Notes: generated from the letters alone by a model not told the origin. DNA of 33,479 nucleotides from a virus (IMGVR_UViG_2778261246_000010), one strand, 5' to 3'. Shown: positions 1,249-18,599, numbered from the stretch's first letter. Made by a program: numbers and translations.

Positions 1249-1777
1249 ACGTAAACTTTTTCCGGTTGTTGTCGATAGCTCTATATCCCTCAACCGGAAA
1301 ATAATAATAGTAAAATGCTTAGCCCTGCTAATAATCGCCTAATCCAAACGCCTCATTCATGTTCTGGTACAGTCGCTCAAATGTACTTCAGATGCGCGGT
1401 TCGCTGATTTCCAGGACATTGTCGTCATTCAGTGACCTGTCCCGTGTATCACGGTCCTGCGAATTCATCAAGGAATGCATTGCGGAGTGAAGTATCGAGT
1501 CACGCCATATTTCGCTATCAGGATTCTGTGTGATGGTTACATCGCCCGGCCCAGGGCTGTTTAGTCATCAGCGCTTTCTGACAGTGCTGAGATTTCAACC
1601 TGTTGCAGTAAAAATGAGTAGATATAAGGCAAGTGTGCTGCCAAACCCATCTTTTACGGGGTGAAGGTAGATTTCGTTTGAAGGGTATCTGGTGTCCCCT
1701 GCAGACATCTACTTGAGGCGGCAGGGGATTGATTGGAATGGTGTTTTTTAGATGTGAAAAATATTTTACCCGCTATT

Positions 1778-1978
1778 TTACCCATTGGCGCGGCTTAAGA
1801 GCTTATTTTTGAATTCACAATGGTCACGATATAACCATCTTGCTCGTCCGTGGATAACTTTGGCTTTAGGCAGGTCGCCGGACTTAATCCGGTCATAGAT
1901 GAAGGTTTTACCAAAGCCAGTATCGGCCATGATGAATTTCAAATCAACCAGTGAATCAGGCTGTAGTTCGTGTTGCAT
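1778..1978 (-). CDS. Excisionase-like AlpA/Xis-family HTH protein
   Basis: 66-aa ORF with the AlpA/Xis pattern (TG.GK..IYDRIKSGDLPK....G.ARWL); sits at the distal end of the leftward early operon where lambdoid xis lies. Confidence 0.6.
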   Translation of the reverse strand: MQHELQPDSLVDLKFIMADTGFGKTFIYDRIKSGDLPKAKVIHGRARWLYRDHCEFKNKLLSRANG

Positions 1979-2100
1979 GAGTACTATCTCCGAATATGGA
2001 ATCGAACCTGCAAATCAGGCAATAAAAAGCCGCATTGATGCAGCAATGGTAGGTCTGGATATCTTGAGAAATGAACAGGCCTCATCGAGTGTGAGGCGGG

Positions 2101-2445
2101 TTAGTCATTGCGTAGCTCGCTGATTCTTCTGTAAGTCTCTGGTGCTTTATTCCCGTACGTCTTCATTTCAGACTTCAACAGAGCAACGAGTGAATCCCAT
2201 TCGTTGAGGATTCCTTTGAATGCCGGAACGCGCTTTGCAACCTTGTCGAATGAATCTCTGATTTCTGGAATCTGCTCAACAAGTGCAACGCATCGCCGGA
2301 AATCGGCTACGTCATGTGGAGCGCCGAAGTGATGACCATAGATATTATTTTTCAGTCCACATGCGATTGAGGCAAGAGTTGCGCTACTGATGCCGACATC
2401 GCCAGTCGATTGCCATTTCAAAACCTTCATAGCCAAATCTGACAT
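2101..2445 (-). CDS. Hypothetical exo-xis region protein (114 aa)
   Basis: ORF co-oriented with the leftward operon; no recognisable motif. Confidence 0.45.
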   Translation of the reverse strand: MSDLAMKVLKWQSTGDVGISSATLASIACGLKNNIYGHHFGAPHDVADFRRCVALVEQIPEIRDSFDKVAKRVPAFKGILNEWDSLVALLKSEMKTYGNKAPETYRRISELRND

Positions 2446-2517
2446 TTCTTGTCTCCATAAAACAAAACTCGCCGTAGCGAGTTCAGATAAAAGAAATCTC
2501 CGCGAGTGCGAGGATTG

Positions 2518-2805
2518 TTATTCATTGCCGATATTCACCTTTATAGCGAACACCTTTACCGGTTTATCGCCGAAGTGGGGATGTGTGATTGTCTTGATTT
2601 CATATCCGTCATACGGAACATCAATTCTGCGACTGAAATCGTCGCGCTTCGGATATCCCTTTGTGATAATCAGGCGGTCATATTCGCGGAACATAATTCG
2701 CTTATTCCAGTAGTCATTACACAGGCGATACTCTTCCGTTTTCTCTCCGCGAATCATTGCATCGAAGTATTCACTTTTAACAGCAAGTTGCAGGTTAGCC
2801 ATCAC
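2518..2805 (-). CDS. ASCH-domain-like protein (95 aa)
   Basis: N-terminal pattern (LAVKSEYFDAMIRGEKTEEYR) resembles the ASCH/PUA-like fold signature; start overlaps the stop of the upstream TraR-like gene. Confidence 0.45.
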   Translation of the reverse strand: MMANLQLAVKSEYFDAMIRGEKTEEYRLCNDYWNKRIMFREYDRLIITKGYPKRDDFSRRIDVPYDGYEIKTITHPHFGDKPVKVFAIKVNIGNE

Positions 2806-3023
2806 TTAATCCCCCTTTGTTTGCGGATAAGCTCCAGATCTTCCTGGCAACTTGCACAAGTCCGACAACCCTGAACGGCCAGGCGTCTTCGCTCATCTAT
2901 GGGATCGCCACACTCACAACAATGAGTGGCAGATATAGCCTGGTGGTTCAGGCGGCGCATTTTTATTGCTGTGTTGCGCTGTAATTCTTCAATTTCTGAT
3001 GCTGAATCAATGATGTCTGCCAT
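2802..3023 (-). CDS. TraR/DksA-family C4 zinc-finger protein (73 aa; lambda Orf73-like)
   Basis: Two Cys pairs (CCECGDPI...CRTCASC) in the TraR arrangement; size and position match the TraR-like gene of the lambda exo-xis region. Confidence 0.7.
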   Translation of the reverse strand: MADIIDSASEIEELQRNTAIKMRRLNHQAISATHCCECGDPIDERRRLAVQGCRTCASCQEDLELIRKQRGIK

Positions 3024-3072
3024 CTTTCATTAATCCCTGAATTGTTGGTTAATACGCTTGAGGGTGAATGCG

Positions 3073-3099
3073 AATAATAAAAAAGGAGCCTGTAGCTCC
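3073..3099 (-). terminator. Putative intrinsic terminator (leftward transcript)
   Basis: Hairpin GGAGC-ctgta-GCTCC followed on the minus strand by a T-rich tract. Confidence 0.4.
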
Positions 3100-3121
3100 C
3101 TGATGATTTTGCTTTTCATGT

Positions 3122-3337
3122 TCACCGTTCCTTAAAAACGCCGTTTAACATGCCGATTGCCAGGCTTAAATGAGTCGGTGTGAATCCCATCAGTGTTACC
3201 GTTTCGCGGTGCTTCTTCAGTACGCTACGGCAAATGTCATCGACGTTTTTATCCGGAAACTGCTGTCTGGCTTTTTTGATTTCAGAATTAGCCTGACGGG
3301 CAATGCTGCGAAGGGCGTTATTATGTTCTATTGTCAT
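3122..3337 (-). CDS. Hypothetical exo-xis region protein (71 aa)
   Basis: Internal ATG of the listed ORF with a GAGG Shine-Dalgarno upstream; begins 7 nt after the stop of the upstream 250-aa gene. Confidence 0.5.
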   Translation of the reverse strand: MTIEHNNALRSIARQANSEIKKARQQFPDKNVDDICRSVLKKHRETVTLMGFTPTHLSLAIGMLNGVFKER

Positions 3338-3344
3338 ATTGGCC

Positions 3345-4097
3345 TCACACTTCGAATGCCAGTTGATGGGTAAAGACGTCCCGTTCAGCGTTGTAATTAA
3401 GTGAACTGGCACTGTTGAATGATTCAATGCGTTCCATAAGAACTTGCGTACGGGTTTCTTTACTTGCGGGAGCATATGGCGAACCTACCCAGGATTTGTC
3501 GATGCCTATATTTCTTGCGACGTTCGTGCTGTCTGCAGACGAAAGCGGTACATGAGTAAAAATGTCTTTATTTAACATCCGTAACCCATGAATCTTGGTG
3601 ATTGGGTAGCCGTACTGATCTACAACATGACGTATAAGATCGCGTAGTTTAGCCCGACACGCTCTCGGTCGTTTTGCATCGTATTCCCCCATCGAGCCGA
3701 TGCAGACGCGGGGAAACTCATGGCACAGACGAATAAATCGCTCATCTGGTTCGTTCATGTGCCACACCGGAGCACCAATAAATTTACCGTGAGGCCATGC
3801 CGCAATCAGGGCGTCATTCTCTTCACTGGTTCCGCCGATAACATCCGGGATAACCGCGAATGAGAAACGAGGGTGATTACCCCAGCGTTCAACAAATCTG
3901 TAATATTCATTCCAGTCTACGGCCTTGTTTTTTGTCCAGAATGTGAATGCACCATTATCAAGAGCAAATGATTGGGTGACTTCGGAAGCCAGATCAATCT
4001 GAGCTGGATTAGCAAAACTGATGAATGCGTGTCTGCCTTTCCAGGCTTTCAACGCACAGGTATCGGGAGTTATTGGACCACCGTGAAAATGAATCAT
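3345..4097 (-). CDS. Hypothetical protein (250 aa), function unknown; possibly enzymatic
   Basis: Long ORF, same strand as exo; its ATG overlaps the stop of the small upstream ORF (ATGA). No lambda counterpart of this size in this position. Confidence 0.6.
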   Translation of the reverse strand: MIHFHGGPITPDTCALKAWKGRHAFISFANPAQIDLASEVTQSFALDNGAFTFWTKNKAVDWNEYYRFVERWGNHPRFSFAVIPDVIGGTSEENDALIAAWPHGKFIGAPVWHMNEPDERFIRLCHEFPRVCIGSMGEYDAKRPRACRAKLRDLIRHVVDQYGYPITKIHGLRMLNKDIFTHVPLSSADSTNVARNIGIDKSWVGSPYAPASKETRTQVLMERIESFNSASSLNYNAERDVFTHQLAFEV

Positions 4098-4252
4098 ACA
4101 CTCTCCCGTTTATTATTTATCTCCTCAGCCAGCCGCTGTGCTTTCAGGGGATTTCTGATAACAGAAAGGCCGGGAAATACCCAGCCTCGCTTTGTAATGG
4201 AGTAGACGAAAGTGATCGCGCCTACCCGGATATTATCGCGAGGATGCGTCAT
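4094..4252 (-). CDS. Small exo-proximal protein (52 aa; orf60a-like position)
   Basis: Hand-translated [55 protein letters not shown]; ATGA overlaps with the exo stop and with the next gene start. Below the ORF-track size cutoff. Confidence 0.4.
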
Positions 4253-4929
4253 CGCCATTGCTCCCCAAATACAAAACCAATTTCAGCCAGTGCCTCGTCC
4301 ATTTTTTCGATGAACTCCGGCACCATCTCGTCAAAACTCGCCATGTAATTTTCATCCCGCTCAACCACGACATAATGCAGTCCTTCACGCTTCATACGCG
4401 GGTCATAGTTGGCAAAGTACCAGGCATCTTTTCGTGTCACCCACATGCTGTACTGCACCTGGGCCATGTAAGCCGACTTTATGGCCTCGAAACCACCGAG
4501 CCGGAACTTCATGAAATCCCGGGAGGTAAACGGGCATTTCAGCTCAAGGCCATTGCCGTCACTGCATAAACCATCGGGAGAGCAGGCGGTGCGCATACTT
4601 TCGTCGCGATAGATGATCGGGGATTCAGTAACATTCACGCCGGAAGTGAATTCAAACAGAGTTCTGGCGTCGTTCTCGTACTGTTTTCCCCAGGCCAGCG
4701 CCTTAGCATTAACTTCCGGAGCCACACCGGTGCAAACCTCAGCCAGCAGGGTGTGGAAGTAGGACATTTTCATGTCAGGCCACTTCTTTCCTGAGCGGGG
4801 CTTTGCTATCACGTTGTGAACTTCTGAAGCGGTGATGACGCCGAGCCGTAATTTGTGCCACGCATCATCTCCCTGCTCGATAGCTCTCACGTCGATCCCG
4901 GTACGCTGCAGGATAATGTCCGGTGTCAT
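4249..4929 (-). CDS. exo: Lambda-type exonuclease (Red-alpha)
   Basis: 226-aa translation matches my recollection of lambda Exo almost residue for residue. Confidence 0.95.
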
Positions 4930-6987: not shown

Positions 6988-7188
6988 TCAGGCAGCTTTG
7001 TTGTTCTGTTTACCAAGTTCTCTGGCAATCATTGCCGTCGTTCGTATTGCCCATTTATCGACATATTTCCCATCTTCCATTACAGGAAACATTTCTTCAG
7101 GCTTAACCATGCATTCCGATTGCAGCTTGCATCCATTGCATCGCTTGAATTGTCCACACTATTGATTTTTATCAATAGTCGTAGTCAT
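6988..7188 (-). pseudogene. ral: ral (restriction alleviation) interrupted by an in-frame TAG at codon 10
   Basis: Minus strand reads ATG ACT ACG ACT ATT GAT AAA AAT CAA TAG TGT GGA ..., i.e. MTTTIDKNQ*CGQFKRCNGCKLQSECMVKPEEMFPVMEDGKYVDKWAIRTTAMIARELGKQNNKAA; the rest is colinear with Ral. Confidence 0.7.
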
Positions 7189-12839: not shown

Positions 12840-13286
12840 ATGAAGCAAATATACATGCTTCGCAACGAAGCAATCAGAAACAACGCCATAGACGCAATAC
12901 TCTCACTTCCGATCGACGACAAGTCACCTCACGAAGTCCACATTAAAGAACCAAAGCGGAGCAATCCTCAAAACCGCCTTATGTGGGCGTTATTGCAGGA
13001 CGTATCGCGTCAGGTGCTTTGGCATGGAGAGAGACTTGCGCCGGAGGACTGGAAAGACCTGTTCACTGCCCTGTGGCTTAAGACCAAAAAACTGGAGCAA
13101 CGAAGTGCGCCTGGTATCGACGGTGGCGTTGTTATGCTTGGCGTGCGTACCAGCAAAATGCGAAAGGCCAGCATGACTGAGCTTATCGAAATCATGTTCT
13201 GGTTCGGCTCAGAGCGCAACGTGCGGTGGAGTGATGACTCCCGGCGAGAGTATGAATGGTCACAACGAAAAGGGAAGGCTGCATGA
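12840..13286 (+). CDS. ninB: NinB recombination protein
   Basis: 148-aa translation matches lambda NinB (orf146). Confidence 0.9.
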   Translation: MKQIYMLRNEAIRNNAIDAILSLPIDDKSPHEVHIKEPKRSNPQNRLMWALLQDVSRQVLWHGERLAPEDWKDLFTALWLKTKKLEQRSAPGIDGGVVMLGVRTSKMRKASMTELIEIMFWFGSERNVRWSDDSRREYEWSQRKGKAA

Positions 13287-13810
13287 CTATCAAATCAAAT
13301 ACGCCAGCACACGACAAGGACTGCTGGCAAACGCCGCTTTGGCTTTTTGATGCGCTGGATATTGAGTTTGGATTCTGGCTGGATTCAGCTGCGAGCGACA
13401 AAAACGCTCTGTGCGCTCACTGGCTAACTGAGGCCGACGACGCGCTAAATTCTGAGTGGATAAGCCACGGTGCAATCTGGAATAACCCACCGTACAGCAA
13501 TATCAGGCCGTGGGTGGAAAAAGCCGCTGAGCAGTGCATACAACAGCGACAGACGGTAGTTATGCTTGTGCCAGAGGATATGTCAGTCGGATGGTTCAGC
13601 AAGGCTCTGGAGAGTGTCGACGAAGTTCGCATTATCACTGATGGACGGATTAATTTTATCGAACCATCGACAGGGCTGGAGAAGAAGGGAAACAGCAAAG
13701 GCTCCATGCTGCTGATTTGGCGACCGCTCATCAGTCCTCGACGGATGTTTACTACCGTATCCAAAGCGGCATTGATGGCGATCGGGCGGGGCGTCAGGAG
13801 GGCGGCATGA
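13283..13810 (+). CDS. Phage Dam-type DNA N6-adenine methyltransferase
   Basis: NPPYS motif ([12 protein letters not shown]); occupies the lambda ninC/ninD position; ATGA overlap with ninB. Confidence 0.8.
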
Positions 13811-16581: not shown

Positions 16582-16656
16582 GGGTCAGTCGTATAAAGGT
16601 CATTACGGAAGGCTGTTAACCTTCTTATCGTGGTTCGAGTCCACGCTGTCCCGCCA
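16582..16656 (+). tRNA. tRNA-like gene, anticodon GTT (Asn); acceptor and D stems imperfect
   Basis: Hand-folded cloverleaf: anticodon stem GAAGG/CCTTC with loop CTGTTAA, T-arm CGTGG-TTCGAGT-CCACG, 3-prime CCA; one acceptor-stem mismatch. Confidence 0.5.
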
Positions 16657-16661
16657 AATAT

Positions 16662-16737
16662 GCTGGTTTAGCTCCAATGGTAGAGCAGTCGCCTTGTAAG
16701 CGAATGGGTAGCGGTTCAAGTCCGTTAACCAGCACCA
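16662..16737 (+). tRNA. tRNA, anticodon TGT (Thr)
   Basis: Perfect 7-bp acceptor stem GCTGGTT/AACCAGC, D-arm GCTC-CAATGGTA-GAGC, anticodon loop CTTGTAA, T-loop TTCAAGT, 3-prime ACCA. Confidence 0.7.
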
Positions 16738-17071: not shown

Positions 17072-17568
17072 TGCCTCCGTCATTACGAAAAGCTGTTGCA
17101 GCTGCTATTGGTGGCGGGGCTATTGCTATAGCATCAGTGTTAATCACTGGTCCAGGTGGTAACGATGGTCTGGAAGGTGTCAGCTACATACCATACAAAG
17201 ATATCGTTGGCGTATGGACTGTATGTCACGGGCATACAGGAAAAGACATCATTCCCGGTAAAACGTATACCGAAGCAGAATGCAAAGCCCTCCTGAATAA
17301 AGACCTTGCCACGGTAGCCAGACAAATTAACCCGTACATCAAAGTCGATATACCGGAAACAACGCGCGGCGCTCTTTACTCATTCGTTTACAACGTGGGT
17401 GCTGGCAATTTCAGAACATCGACGCTTCTGCGCAAAATCAACCAGGGCGATATCAAAGGCGCATGTGATCAGCTACGTCGCTGGACATACGCTGGCGGTA
17501 AGCAATGGAAAGGTCTGATGACTCGTCGTGAGATTGAGCGTGAAGTCTGTTTGTGGGGGCAACAATGA
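17071..17568 (+). CDS. R: SAR endolysin (phage 21 R-type lysozyme)
   Basis: Gly/Ala-rich N-terminal signal-anchor-release segment followed by a lysozyme domain; start overlaps the holin stop. Confidence 0.9.
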
Positions 17569-17660
17569 GCATGATTTGCTTTTTCATGGCAGCGTTGCTC
17601 GCATTCAATGGCAACGATGCGTGGCCGTGGTTTCTGGCCGTTGGAGTGTTGATGTCATGA
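17565..17660 (+). CDS. Possible 31-aa hydrophobic peptide between endolysin and the Rz-like start
   Basis: Hand-translated [31 protein letters not shown]; ATGA overlaps at both ends. Confidence 0.3.
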
Positions 17661-17806
17661 GTCGGTTAACCGCGATTATCTCCGCTCTGGTTATCTGCAT
17701 CATCGTCTGCCTGGCGTGTGGCGGCGCATTTTCTGGTGTCGTTCATTGTCGGCGTACTGGGCGCAGAGGTTCTGGCATCCTGGCTGGTAAAGCATACAGG
17801 GTTTGA
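17657..17806 (+). CDS. Rz-like i-spanin N-terminal fragment (49 aa), diverging after the TM segment
   Basis: [19 protein letters not shown] matches the lambda Rz N-terminus, then the frame diverges and stops; no embedded Rz1-like lipoprotein found. Confidence 0.35.
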   Translation: MSRLTAIISALVICIIVCLACGGAFSGVVHCRRTGRRGSGILAGKAYRV

Positions 17807-17943
17807 CGGTGCTCCCGTCGACGCACTGTGTGCAGTGCTGGTGTCAGTGGTGTCGGTGAAGATTCTCTCGTTCATCCACCAGCAGGATATTGCATCGCTG
17901 GTGTCCGGTGTGTTCTCCCGCCAGCGAGGCGGAGGAGGCGGTA

Positions 17944-18219
17944 ATGTTAAGTAACCTTCCCGGATTGCTGAATGTGGCGTTATGCACGGTTATCGTGCTG
18001 ACGCTCTTTTTTTATCGTCGTCGCGATTCCAGGCATAAACCGCTGATGTCATGGCTGGCCTGGCTGCTGATGCTGCTGTATGCCTTTGCGCCTCTCAGCT
18101 ATCTGTGTGGTTGCCCGTTAGCAACGGGCTGGCTGGATGTGTTTTTTAATCTGCTGTTCTGCGTGCTGGTGATACGCGCACGCGGGAACGTCACAAGAAT
18201 CTTTCCATTGTTGAGGTGA
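17944..18219 (+). CDS. Small membrane protein (91 aa, about 3 TM segments); holin-like candidate
   Basis: Strong GGAGGAGG Shine-Dalgarno 7 nt upstream; three hydrophobic stretches; immediately upstream of the M15 peptidase gene. Confidence 0.55.
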   Translation: MLSNLPGLLNVALCTVIVLTLFFYRRRDSRHKPLMSWLAWLLMLLYAFAPLSYLCGCPLATGWLDVFFNLLFCVLVIRARGNVTRIFPLLR

Positions 18220-18221
18220 AT

Positions 18222-18599
18222 ATGTCGGGTAAATTCAGATTCAGCCGCCGGAGCGAGAAAAATCTGGAAGGCGTCAAACCACAGCTGGTTGCTGTAGTTC
18301 GCCGCGCCCTTGAACTGTCGGAGGTTGATTTCGGTATTACGGAAGGCCTGCGCACGAAAGAACGCCAGAAACAGCTGGTTGCAGAAGGCAAGAGCCAGAC
18401 CATGAACAGCCGCCACCTGACCGGTGATGCGGTGGATGTTGTGGCCTGGGTTGGCAGCCAGGTGTCATGGGACTGGCCTCTGTACGAGAAAATCGCGCAG
18501 GCATTTAAGCAGGCTGCCGCAGAGCTGGGAACTGCCATCGAATGGGGCGGGGACTGGAAAACGCTGAAAGACGGACCTCACTTTCAGTTGAAGCGTTGA
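18222..18599 (+). CDS. Peptidase M15-family zinc peptidase (VanY-like; candidate second endolysin)
   Basis: SxHxxGxAxD motif present as SRHLTGDAVD plus a downstream His; start 2 nt after the preceding stop. Confidence 0.75.
   Translation: MSGKFRFSRRSEKNLEGVKPQLVAVVRRALELSEVDFGITEGLRTKERQKQLVAEGKSQTMNSRHLTGDAVDVVAWVGSQVSWDWPLYEKIAQAFKQAAAELGTAIEWGGDWKTLKDGPHFQLKR

Follow-up and report, generated by a model that had tools for sequence, protein, structure and literature searches.

The stretch of DNA analysed in this study (hereafter the window) comprises 33,479 nucleotides (nt) from a virus (IMGVR_UViG_2778261246_000010), and our subject is the gene cluster at positions 1778-4252, above all the 250-amino-acid (250-aa) protein encoded at 3345-4097 on the minus strand. 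The gene calls are those of the PGAP annotation of the Escherichia coli RM10740 chromosome (NZ_CP043821.1), which is 100% identical to the window, and they put six genes, all on the minus strand, in the interval from torI/xis (1778-1978) to exo (4249-4929). These calls bore out an original prediction, made without database searches, of six leftward genes in a lambda-type exo-xis accessory region, and the 250-aa and 114-aa open reading frames (ORFs) that it had named are both present in the annotation. The 250-aa protein had been described there as having no lambda counterpart of that size, which holds, since lambda carries orf63 and orf61 at this place, and as being of unknown function, although its family can be recognised. 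The protein very probably belongs to the phage DpdA family, whose enzymes exchange guanines in DNA for 7-deazaguanine bases, within the superfamily of tRNA-guanine transglycosylases (TGTs), and a 99%-identical protein of phage SfI had already been listed as a DpdA in 2019.

Family membership, fold and active site of the 250-aa protein

The 250-aa protein falls into phrog_887 of the PHROGs database (annotated as 'queuine tRNA-ribosyltransferase') with an E value of 1.3e-98. The same family also contains the validated DpdA of phage 9g (E 2e-98), the DpdA of Salmonella phage 7-11 (E 7e-74) and that of Mycobacterium phage Rinkes (E 7e-37), the gene for the last of which is located inside a folE-dpdA-queC-queD-queE operon. 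In addition, the protein shows 99.2% identity to gp34 of phage SfI (YP_009147480), and the gene order also matches, with the SfI protein equally placed between DUF1317/orf60a and orf61-orf73. Supplementary Data 1 of the 2019 survey by Hutinet et al. (Nat Commun, PMC6884629) lists both this SfI protein and HK106 YP_007151699 among the DpdAs of phages that have no genes for preQ0 or G+ synthesis. Judged by its sequence, the 250-aa protein appears to be an already catalogued singleton DpdA, essentially another copy of the SfI allele. The RefSeq label 'hypothetical protein' persists in E. coli in spite of the listing of its SfI twin, and the annotation could be corrected on the basis of that listing.

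More distant relatives gave the same picture. A family profile was built from 54 diverse members, which are 31-52% identical to the query; aligned with hhalign, it scored 98.4% (E 6.5e-15) against the 9g DpdA and 98.5% (E 3.8e-15) against the Rinkes DpdA, while BLASTP against the 7-11 DpdA gave 36% identity with an E value of 9e-37. Against the assignment, the 250-aa protein has no match in Pfam, NCBIfam, PADLOC (including its DpdA model) or the PDB sequences, and the Pfam TGT family (PF01702) was matched neither by this protein nor by any of the 54 family members. The Rinkes and 7-11 DpdA proteins likewise have no Pfam TGT match. A hidden Markov model of the 54 sequences returned only spurious GCN4 coiled-coil matches when compared with the PDB sequences, and hhalign of the family profile against the single E. 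coli TGT sequence gave no signal, so that the link to TGT proper is drawn through fold comparison only.

Regarding that fold, a first AlphaFold2 model based on 29 close homologs was poor, with a predicted local distance difference test score (pLDDT) of 68.5 and Foldseek matches to generic TIM barrels, and it was discarded. The AlphaFold model obtained from a diverse alignment reached a pLDDT of 93.1 and a predicted template modelling score (pTM) of 0.89 and formed a (beta/alpha) barrel; as modelled, the protein has the (beta/alpha)8 barrel fold of the TGT type. With this model, Foldseek placed TrpA and other TIM barrels at the top; ArcTGT came 30th and TGT 50th.

The putative active site is strongly conserved. 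D47 (in the motif LDNGAF), D85 (IPDVI), H113 (VWH), H170 (HGL) and D189-S190 (SADS) are invariant in an alignment with the DpdA proteins of 7-11, Rinkes and 9g. The 54 diverse family members keep D47, H170 and D189 without exception, and D85 and H113 in at least 90% of cases. In the bacterial DpdA, Asp95 is the general acid/base, Asp130 and His181 contact the Watson-Crick edge, and Asp256 is the nucleophile; mutation of Asp95 or Asp256 abolished guanine exchange (PMC10164549). By their order and motifs, the invariant D47, D85, H113, H170 and D189 would fit these roles of Asp95, Asp130, His181 and Asp256. The H170/D189 pair also resembles the H226/D248 pair of Cap10. Cysteines of the 250-aa protein occur only at positions 14, 125, 132 and 147 and form no CxCxxC motif, whereas E. 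coli TGT has CDCYTC at residue 302. The structural zinc site conserved in TGT and bacterial DpdA (CxCx2Cx22H; PMC10164549) is absent from the 250-aa protein as well as from the 9g, Rinkes and 7-11 DpdA proteins, and its absence is therefore a trait of phage DpdAs rather than a disqualifying feature.

Comparison with the known systems further defines the position of this protein. The singleton DpdAs of 7-11 and HK106 are 36-37% identical to it, and the gamma-proteobacterial clade that includes SfI, HK106 and 7-11, the function of which is predicted, resembles the window gene in being unaccompanied by preQ0 or G+ synthesis genes. With the DpdA1 type of 9g, CAjan and Rosebush it shares phrog_887 and the motifs LD(N/S)GA(F/Y), D-x-I, VWH/CFH, HG(L/F) and S-x-DS; the identity, however, is only 18-26%, the DpdA1 proteins are 290-317 aa long, and the C-terminal tail differs. 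Relative to the bacterial DpdA of Salmonella Montevideo (PDB 7UI4) and to TGT/ArcTGT, the window protein is about 150 residues shorter and lacks not only the zinc site but also Ins8 and the N-terminal lid. It also differs from the bacterial Dpd system in having no DpdB partner in the prophage, in addition to the missing PF01702 and PADLOC DpdA matches. With Cap10 of the type IV cyclic oligonucleotide-based antiphage signalling system (PDB 9NTN), which acts in deazaguanylation of CdnD, only the fold is common, with no detectable sequence similarity; moreover, Cap10 is found in a defence island, in an operon with Cap9 (QueC-like) and a CD-NTase with an N-terminal M(G/S)G(G/S)GG tail, whereas the window gene lies in a phage early operon among lambda early genes.

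Distribution and neighbours of the DpdA-like gene

The family is large (6257 clusters when grouped at 90% identity, and 1671 representatives at 50%) and extends across Enterobacterales, Vibrio, Aeromonas, Acinetobacter and Pseudomonas, in phages as well as in prophages. Identities to the 250-aa protein are 67% for Salmonella phages BTP1 and SPN3UB, 67% for a Stx1a-converting phage and 85% for Klebsiella phages. Of 5426 complete E. coli genomes, 100 carry the allele of the window. It lies on the chromosome and is labelled 'hypothetical protein' in every case, and 95 of these 100 copies are full length. Relative to homologs that are 82-89% identical in protein, nonsynonymous divergence (dN) was 0.09-0.14 and 53-62% of the third codon positions differed, with synonymous divergence (dS) saturated; the 250-aa ORF is a real gene under purifying selection. 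One 98%-identical copy (IMGVR_UViG_2675903650_000006, 522-1271) carries an in-frame TAG codon, which reflects either pseudogenisation or a sequencing error.

The surroundings of the gene were compared in 80 related IMG/VR loci, which were found with the close alignment and are all relatives of 82-99% identity. The TraR-like gene was a neighbour in 43 of them, DUF1317 in 36, exo in 32, the 114-aa gene in one and the ASCH-like gene in none. In BTP1, HK106 and the Vibrio and Acinetobacter phages, the DpdA-like gene again lies among early accessory genes, and the neighbours differ. A conserved partner, for instance an enzyme that modifies preQ0 or an ATPase resembling DpdB, had been considered and was rejected, as none emerged from the clustering of neighbours in the 80 loci.

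Only one association recurred. A DNA adenine methyltransferase gene lies within 300 nt of the DpdA-like gene in 32 of the 80 loci, corresponding to 24 of the 49 lineages that result when alleles at least 98% identical are collapsed, and the adjoining methyltransferases belong to two unrelated families, MT-A70 (PF05063) or Dam (PF05869). In this comparison, which covered related loci that carry the DpdA-like gene, the adjacency suggests a slot for DNA-modification genes.

Predicted activity and alternative explanations

Our preferred reading, held with moderate confidence, is that the 250-aa protein is a stand-alone DNA 7-deazaguanine transglycosylase that marks phage DNA; we infer DNA as its substrate, together with the inserted base, the level of modification and a protective role. 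Expressed from pL in lytic growth, the enzyme would flip out selected guanines of the double-stranded phage DNA. D189, positioned by H170, would act as the nucleophile that cleaves the glycosidic bond, with D47 serving as the general acid/base, and the covalent intermediate would be resolved by a 7-deazaguanine base, either preQ0 or a close derivative, supplied by the host queuosine pathway (FolE/QueD/QueE/QueC). The outcome would be a sparse, motif-specific 7-deazaguanine mark shielding the phage DNA from some restriction and other DNA-targeting defences, a protective role that would parallel that of the adenine methyltransferases often adjoining the gene. The original prediction had guessed at 'host-takeover or nucleic-acid-modifying' functions for the cluster, and the latter part of that guess fits a DpdA-family protein. 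It had also held that clear homology of the 250-aa protein to a known structural or housekeeping family would speak against such functions; clear homology to a known family was indeed found, but that family is neither housekeeping nor structural.

The supply of the base deserves consideration, as no que or folE gene is annotated across the whole prophage of approximately 46 kb, and none occurs among the conserved neighbours in the 80 related loci. With no co-encoded preQ0 pathway (FolE, QueD, QueE, QueC), the prophage belongs to the 'DpdA only' group of phages, the largest in the 2019 survey (76 of 182), and any 7-deazaguanine must come from the queuosine pathway of the host. Such a supply is feasible, because E. 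coli that expressed the 9g DpdA alone acquired dPreQ0 in its plasmid DNA (PMC6884629). Phages of the DpdA1 type encode FolE, QueD, QueE and QueC themselves and modify 25-32% of G, and the reliance of the window prophage on the host pool leads us to expect a far lower level of modification.

Several points count against this proposal. The pool of free preQ0 may be small, since its conversion to preQ1 is the normal activity of QueF in E. coli. The prophage encodes no DpdB-like gene, and the bacterial DpdA needs the ATPase DpdB (PMC10164549). Hutinet et al. set the gamma-proteobacterial singleton cluster apart and considered functional divergence possible, and the only singleton phages with analysed DNA were 7-11, with dADG at 0.02% of G, and Orion, with none (PMC6884629). 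In addition, the best structural match of the 250-aa protein is Cap10, which places deazaguanine on a protein and not on DNA, and the adjacency to methyltransferases could merely reflect two common accessory genes that share a recombination hot spot. Our literature searches found no experimental work on lambdoid or temperate singleton DpdAs.

One alternative is that the protein is a diverged TGT-fold enzyme with another substrate. This might be a tRNA, with G34 of the Q-family tRNAs (the prophage tRNA-Asn(GUU) among them) as an example, or a protein that receives deazaguanine as in the case of Cap10, and the enzyme would then reprogram translation or interfere with host defence. We consider this unlikely. 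The likeness of the invariant H170/D189 pair to that of Cap10, the tRNA-Asn(GTT) gene carried by the prophage and the divergence of the singleton clade flagged by Hutinet et al. (PMC6884629) are in its favour; the profile similarity of the family, however, is to DNA-acting phage DpdAs (E ~1e-15), with none to the single E. coli TGT, and the zinc subdomain and the C-terminal tRNA-binding parts of TGT/ArcTGT are absent. Furthermore, no Cap9 (QueC-like) or CD-NTase partner was found in the prophage or among the conserved neighbours, with no QueC-like cluster in the 80 loci, and the frequent neighbours are DNA methyltransferases. A related idea, to which we likewise assign a low probability, is that the lambdoid clade of singleton DpdAs serves some purpose besides bulk camouflage against restriction, such as rare motif-specific marks or deazaguanine transfer to something other than DNA. 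Rare marks made from host queuosine precursors could mimic the 'self' mark of bacterial Dpd systems or signal phage development, and a non-DNA target, by analogy with Cap10, is a possibility for the same clade. If either of these were true, the host queuosine pathway would be linked directly to temperate-phage biology.

It is also improbable, in our estimation, that the gene is an inert or only conditionally active passenger, which has kept the DpdA fold with no meaningful DNA modification in E. coli, as in Orion, and which persists by travelling with the recombination module or through activity in other hosts or with exogenous substrates. The unmodified DNA of Orion and the trace level in 7-11 are compatible with such a passenger, but the host of Orion cannot synthesise preQ0, which accounts for that negative result (PMC6884629), and E. 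coli has the pathway. The rarity of the allele among complete E. coli genomes, the in-frame stop in one of its copies and the defective appearance of the prophage (insertion sequences (IS) of the IS4 type in J and the IS3 type in the lysis cassette, and a ral pseudogene) point in the same direction; they contrast with the strong purifying selection, the invariance of the catalytic residues over the 1671 representative clusters and the full length of nearly all the E. coli copies.

If the 250-aa protein does act as a DNA 7-deazaguanine transglycosylase, host-dependent 7-deazaguanine marks would be a feature of some lambdoid, Shigella serotype-converting, Salmonella P22-like and Stx1a phages, with effects on restriction evasion, on susceptibility to deazaguanine-targeting glycosylases and on nanopore base-calling. 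The occurrence of this allele in a lambda-like E. coli prophage, with the inducible relatives SfI and PhiR5_1, which carry the 99%-identical allele, and BTP1, and with queC, queD, queF and tgt mutants at hand, provides an unusually tractable system for asking what singleton DpdAs do.

Remaining genes of the cluster and the prophage setting

The exo-xis region described here is an N-antiterminated early-left (pL) accessory region into which independent gene cassettes have been shuffled, typical of lambdoid mosaicism. Its upstream boundary is the lambda-type exonuclease gene exo (4249-4929, minus strand), annotated by PGAP as 'lambda exonuclease family protein' and carrying a YqaJ domain (PF09588, E 4.5e-30), and its other boundary is the 66-aa excisionase or TorI-type recombination directionality factor (1778-1978, minus strand), named torI by PGAP and matched to phrog_66 ('excisionase and transcriptional regulator') with an E value of 2.7e-8. 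The six genes had been thought to be linked by overlapping stop and start codons. This is true of three junctions only, namely exo/DUF1317 (ATGA), DUF1317/250-aa gene (ATGA) and TraR/ASCH (TGATG or GTGA); the remaining junctions have gaps of 7 nt, between the 250-aa gene and the following 71-aa gene, and then of 98, 72 and 122 nt. Terminator-like hairpins are present in the three longer gaps (3101-3083, 2484-2465 and 2044-2029), as expected of an N-antiterminated pL operon. Relative to the exo-xis region of lambda (orf60a, orf63, orf61, orf73, ea22 and ea8.5), the position and the pL operon are alike, but the DpdA-like gene stands in for orf63 and the ASCH-like and 114-aa genes for ea22 and ea8.5, the window carries in intact form the Orf61-type gene that is truncated in lambda, and the xis of the window is of the TorI type with intS at the opposite end. 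The region is thus an ordinary mosaic, and the initial observation of an accessory cluster is confirmed in part. The original grouping implied that all six genes form one co-adapted operon for host takeover, with cooperation among the TraR-like, ASCH-like, 114-aa and 250-aa proteins. The common strand, the single pL transcription unit and the three stop/start overlaps speak for such an operon, but it is very improbable: the neighbours of the DpdA-like gene reassort freely among the 80 loci and change again in BTP1, HK106 and the Vibrio and Acinetobacter phages, and terminator-like hairpins separate the sub-blocks.

The other cluster genes would act independently of the DpdA-like gene, and they add nothing new. 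The TraR/DksA-type zinc finger that had been recognised in the sequence is a C4 zinc finger protein of 73 aa (2802-3023, minus strand), supported by PF01258 (E 7.6e-9, 35.9 bits against a cut-off of 24.9) and TIGR02419 (E 5.6e-15), and it is an ortholog of lambda Orf73, with 70 of 73 residues identical (96%). The mechanism of Orf73 has been published, including the effect on rRNA promoters for which the original prediction had suggested an assay: lambda Orf73 binds RNA polymerase and inhibits rrnB P1 with a half-maximal inhibitory concentration (IC50) of approximately 50 nM, and it slows host growth while phage yield increases approximately 4-fold (PMC9239242). The ortholog in the window would, in the same manner, bind RNA polymerase at its secondary channel and shut down rRNA and ribosomal-protein promoters.

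Two further genes have lambda counterparts, and their products would be small developmental modulators of the lambda type. The DUF1317 protein of 52-54 aa (4094-4252, minus strand; PF07026, E 2.2e-31) is the homolog of lambda orf60a, which is annotated as DUF1317 at the equivalent place after exo. Downstream of the 250-aa gene, a mechanically called 117-aa ORF (3122-3475) extends into that gene. The gene actually present is the 71-aa ORF starting at 3337 (3122-3337, minus strand), which encodes a full-length Orf61-type protein (phrog_303, E 7.5e-35); phrog_303 covers only residues 45-117 of the 117-aa ORF, which is therefore an over-extension, in agreement with PGAP. The 71-aa gene is colinear with the C-terminal part of lambda orf61 plus the following unannotated 60-aa ORF (NC_001416 30712-31024; L007 3213-3525), indicating that the gene found intact in the window is frameshifted or truncated in the lambda reference. 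The Orf61 protein of Stx phages was predicted to be homeodomain-like, with lambda Orf61 appearing truncated against it (PMC8614690), which is consistent with the split orf61 seen in lambda.

Between the 71-aa gene and the TraR gene, the 98-nt gap also contains a possible 29-aa ORF (3030-3119, minus strand), annotated as gp32 in phage SfI. It overlaps a good terminator-like hairpin (3083-3101) followed by a T-run, and this arrangement is kept 5' of the TraR gene in 36 of the 80 loci. Instead of a gene, the segment may constitute a terminator, or it may serve as both.

The last two genes of the cluster would be unrelated accessory genes (morons). The 94-aa protein encoded at 2518-2802 on the minus strand falls into phrog_625, of unknown function, with an E value of 1.6e-50. 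It had been called ASCH-like, a label that is weakly supported by a Pfam match below threshold (PF04266, residues 7-29 only; 14.2 bits, where the cut-off is 21.2, and E 0.07), by the product name given by PGAP and by a GxKxxExR motif read in the sequence (G19-x-K21-x-x-E24-x-R26); no NCBIfam or PDB sequence match was found for this putative ASCH-domain protein. GxKxxExR is reportedly the ASCH motif, as described by Iyer, Burroughs and Aravind in 2006. The 114-aa prophage protein (2101-2445, minus strand) has no functional assignment, with no match in Pfam, NCBIfam, PADLOC or PDB, and belongs to phrog_1229, also of unknown function (E 1e-50). Its family comprises only 63 clusters, every one of which comes from Enterobacteriaceae prophages, and many are mosaic fusions. 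In other prophages, fusion or recombination has joined several homologs (P0135, P0137, P0153, P0156, P0171 and P0172) to portions of dATP/dGTP pyrophosphohydrolase, Erf, Kil and Ea22-like proteins, and these cases illustrate the frequent in-frame mosaic recombination in the region.

The prophage itself is lambda-like and integrated at argW. The host sucrose permease gene cscB occupies positions 1-1248 of the window, and the prophage end extends from approximately 1700 onward. The interval of the window from cscB to xis carries no integrase; intS is located at the far prophage end, adjoining the tRNA-Arg gene argW, and torI (xis) lies at the opposite end, adjoining the csc sucrose locus (the two ends being window 1249-1978 and NZ_CP043821.1 2697770-2699163). 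This placement of int and xis at opposite ends is the KplE1/CPS-53 type of arrangement. The signs of decay in the prophage are an IS3-family element (~17107-18314) in the lysis cassette beside a truncated holin, an internal stop in ral (6988-7188), and, outside the window, the interruption of the tail gene J by an IS4 element (NZ_CP043821.1 2704843-2706171). In spite of these defects, both the DpdA-like gene and the genes around it are intact.

Two other features of the prophage may be recorded. A Dam-type 'phage N-6-adenine-methyltransferase' gene is present in the nin region (~13283-13810, plus strand); in many related prophages a Dam or MT-A70 gene directly adjoins the DpdA-like gene instead. 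Between the Q antiterminator and the lysis genes lie two tRNA genes on the plus strand, tRNA-Asn(GTT) at 16582-16656 and tRNA-Thr(TGT) at 16662-16737. As tRNA-Asn(GUU) is one of the four tRNAs with a G34 that is the TGT substrate for queuosine, its presence together with a TGT-superfamily gene in one prophage is a curious coincidence.

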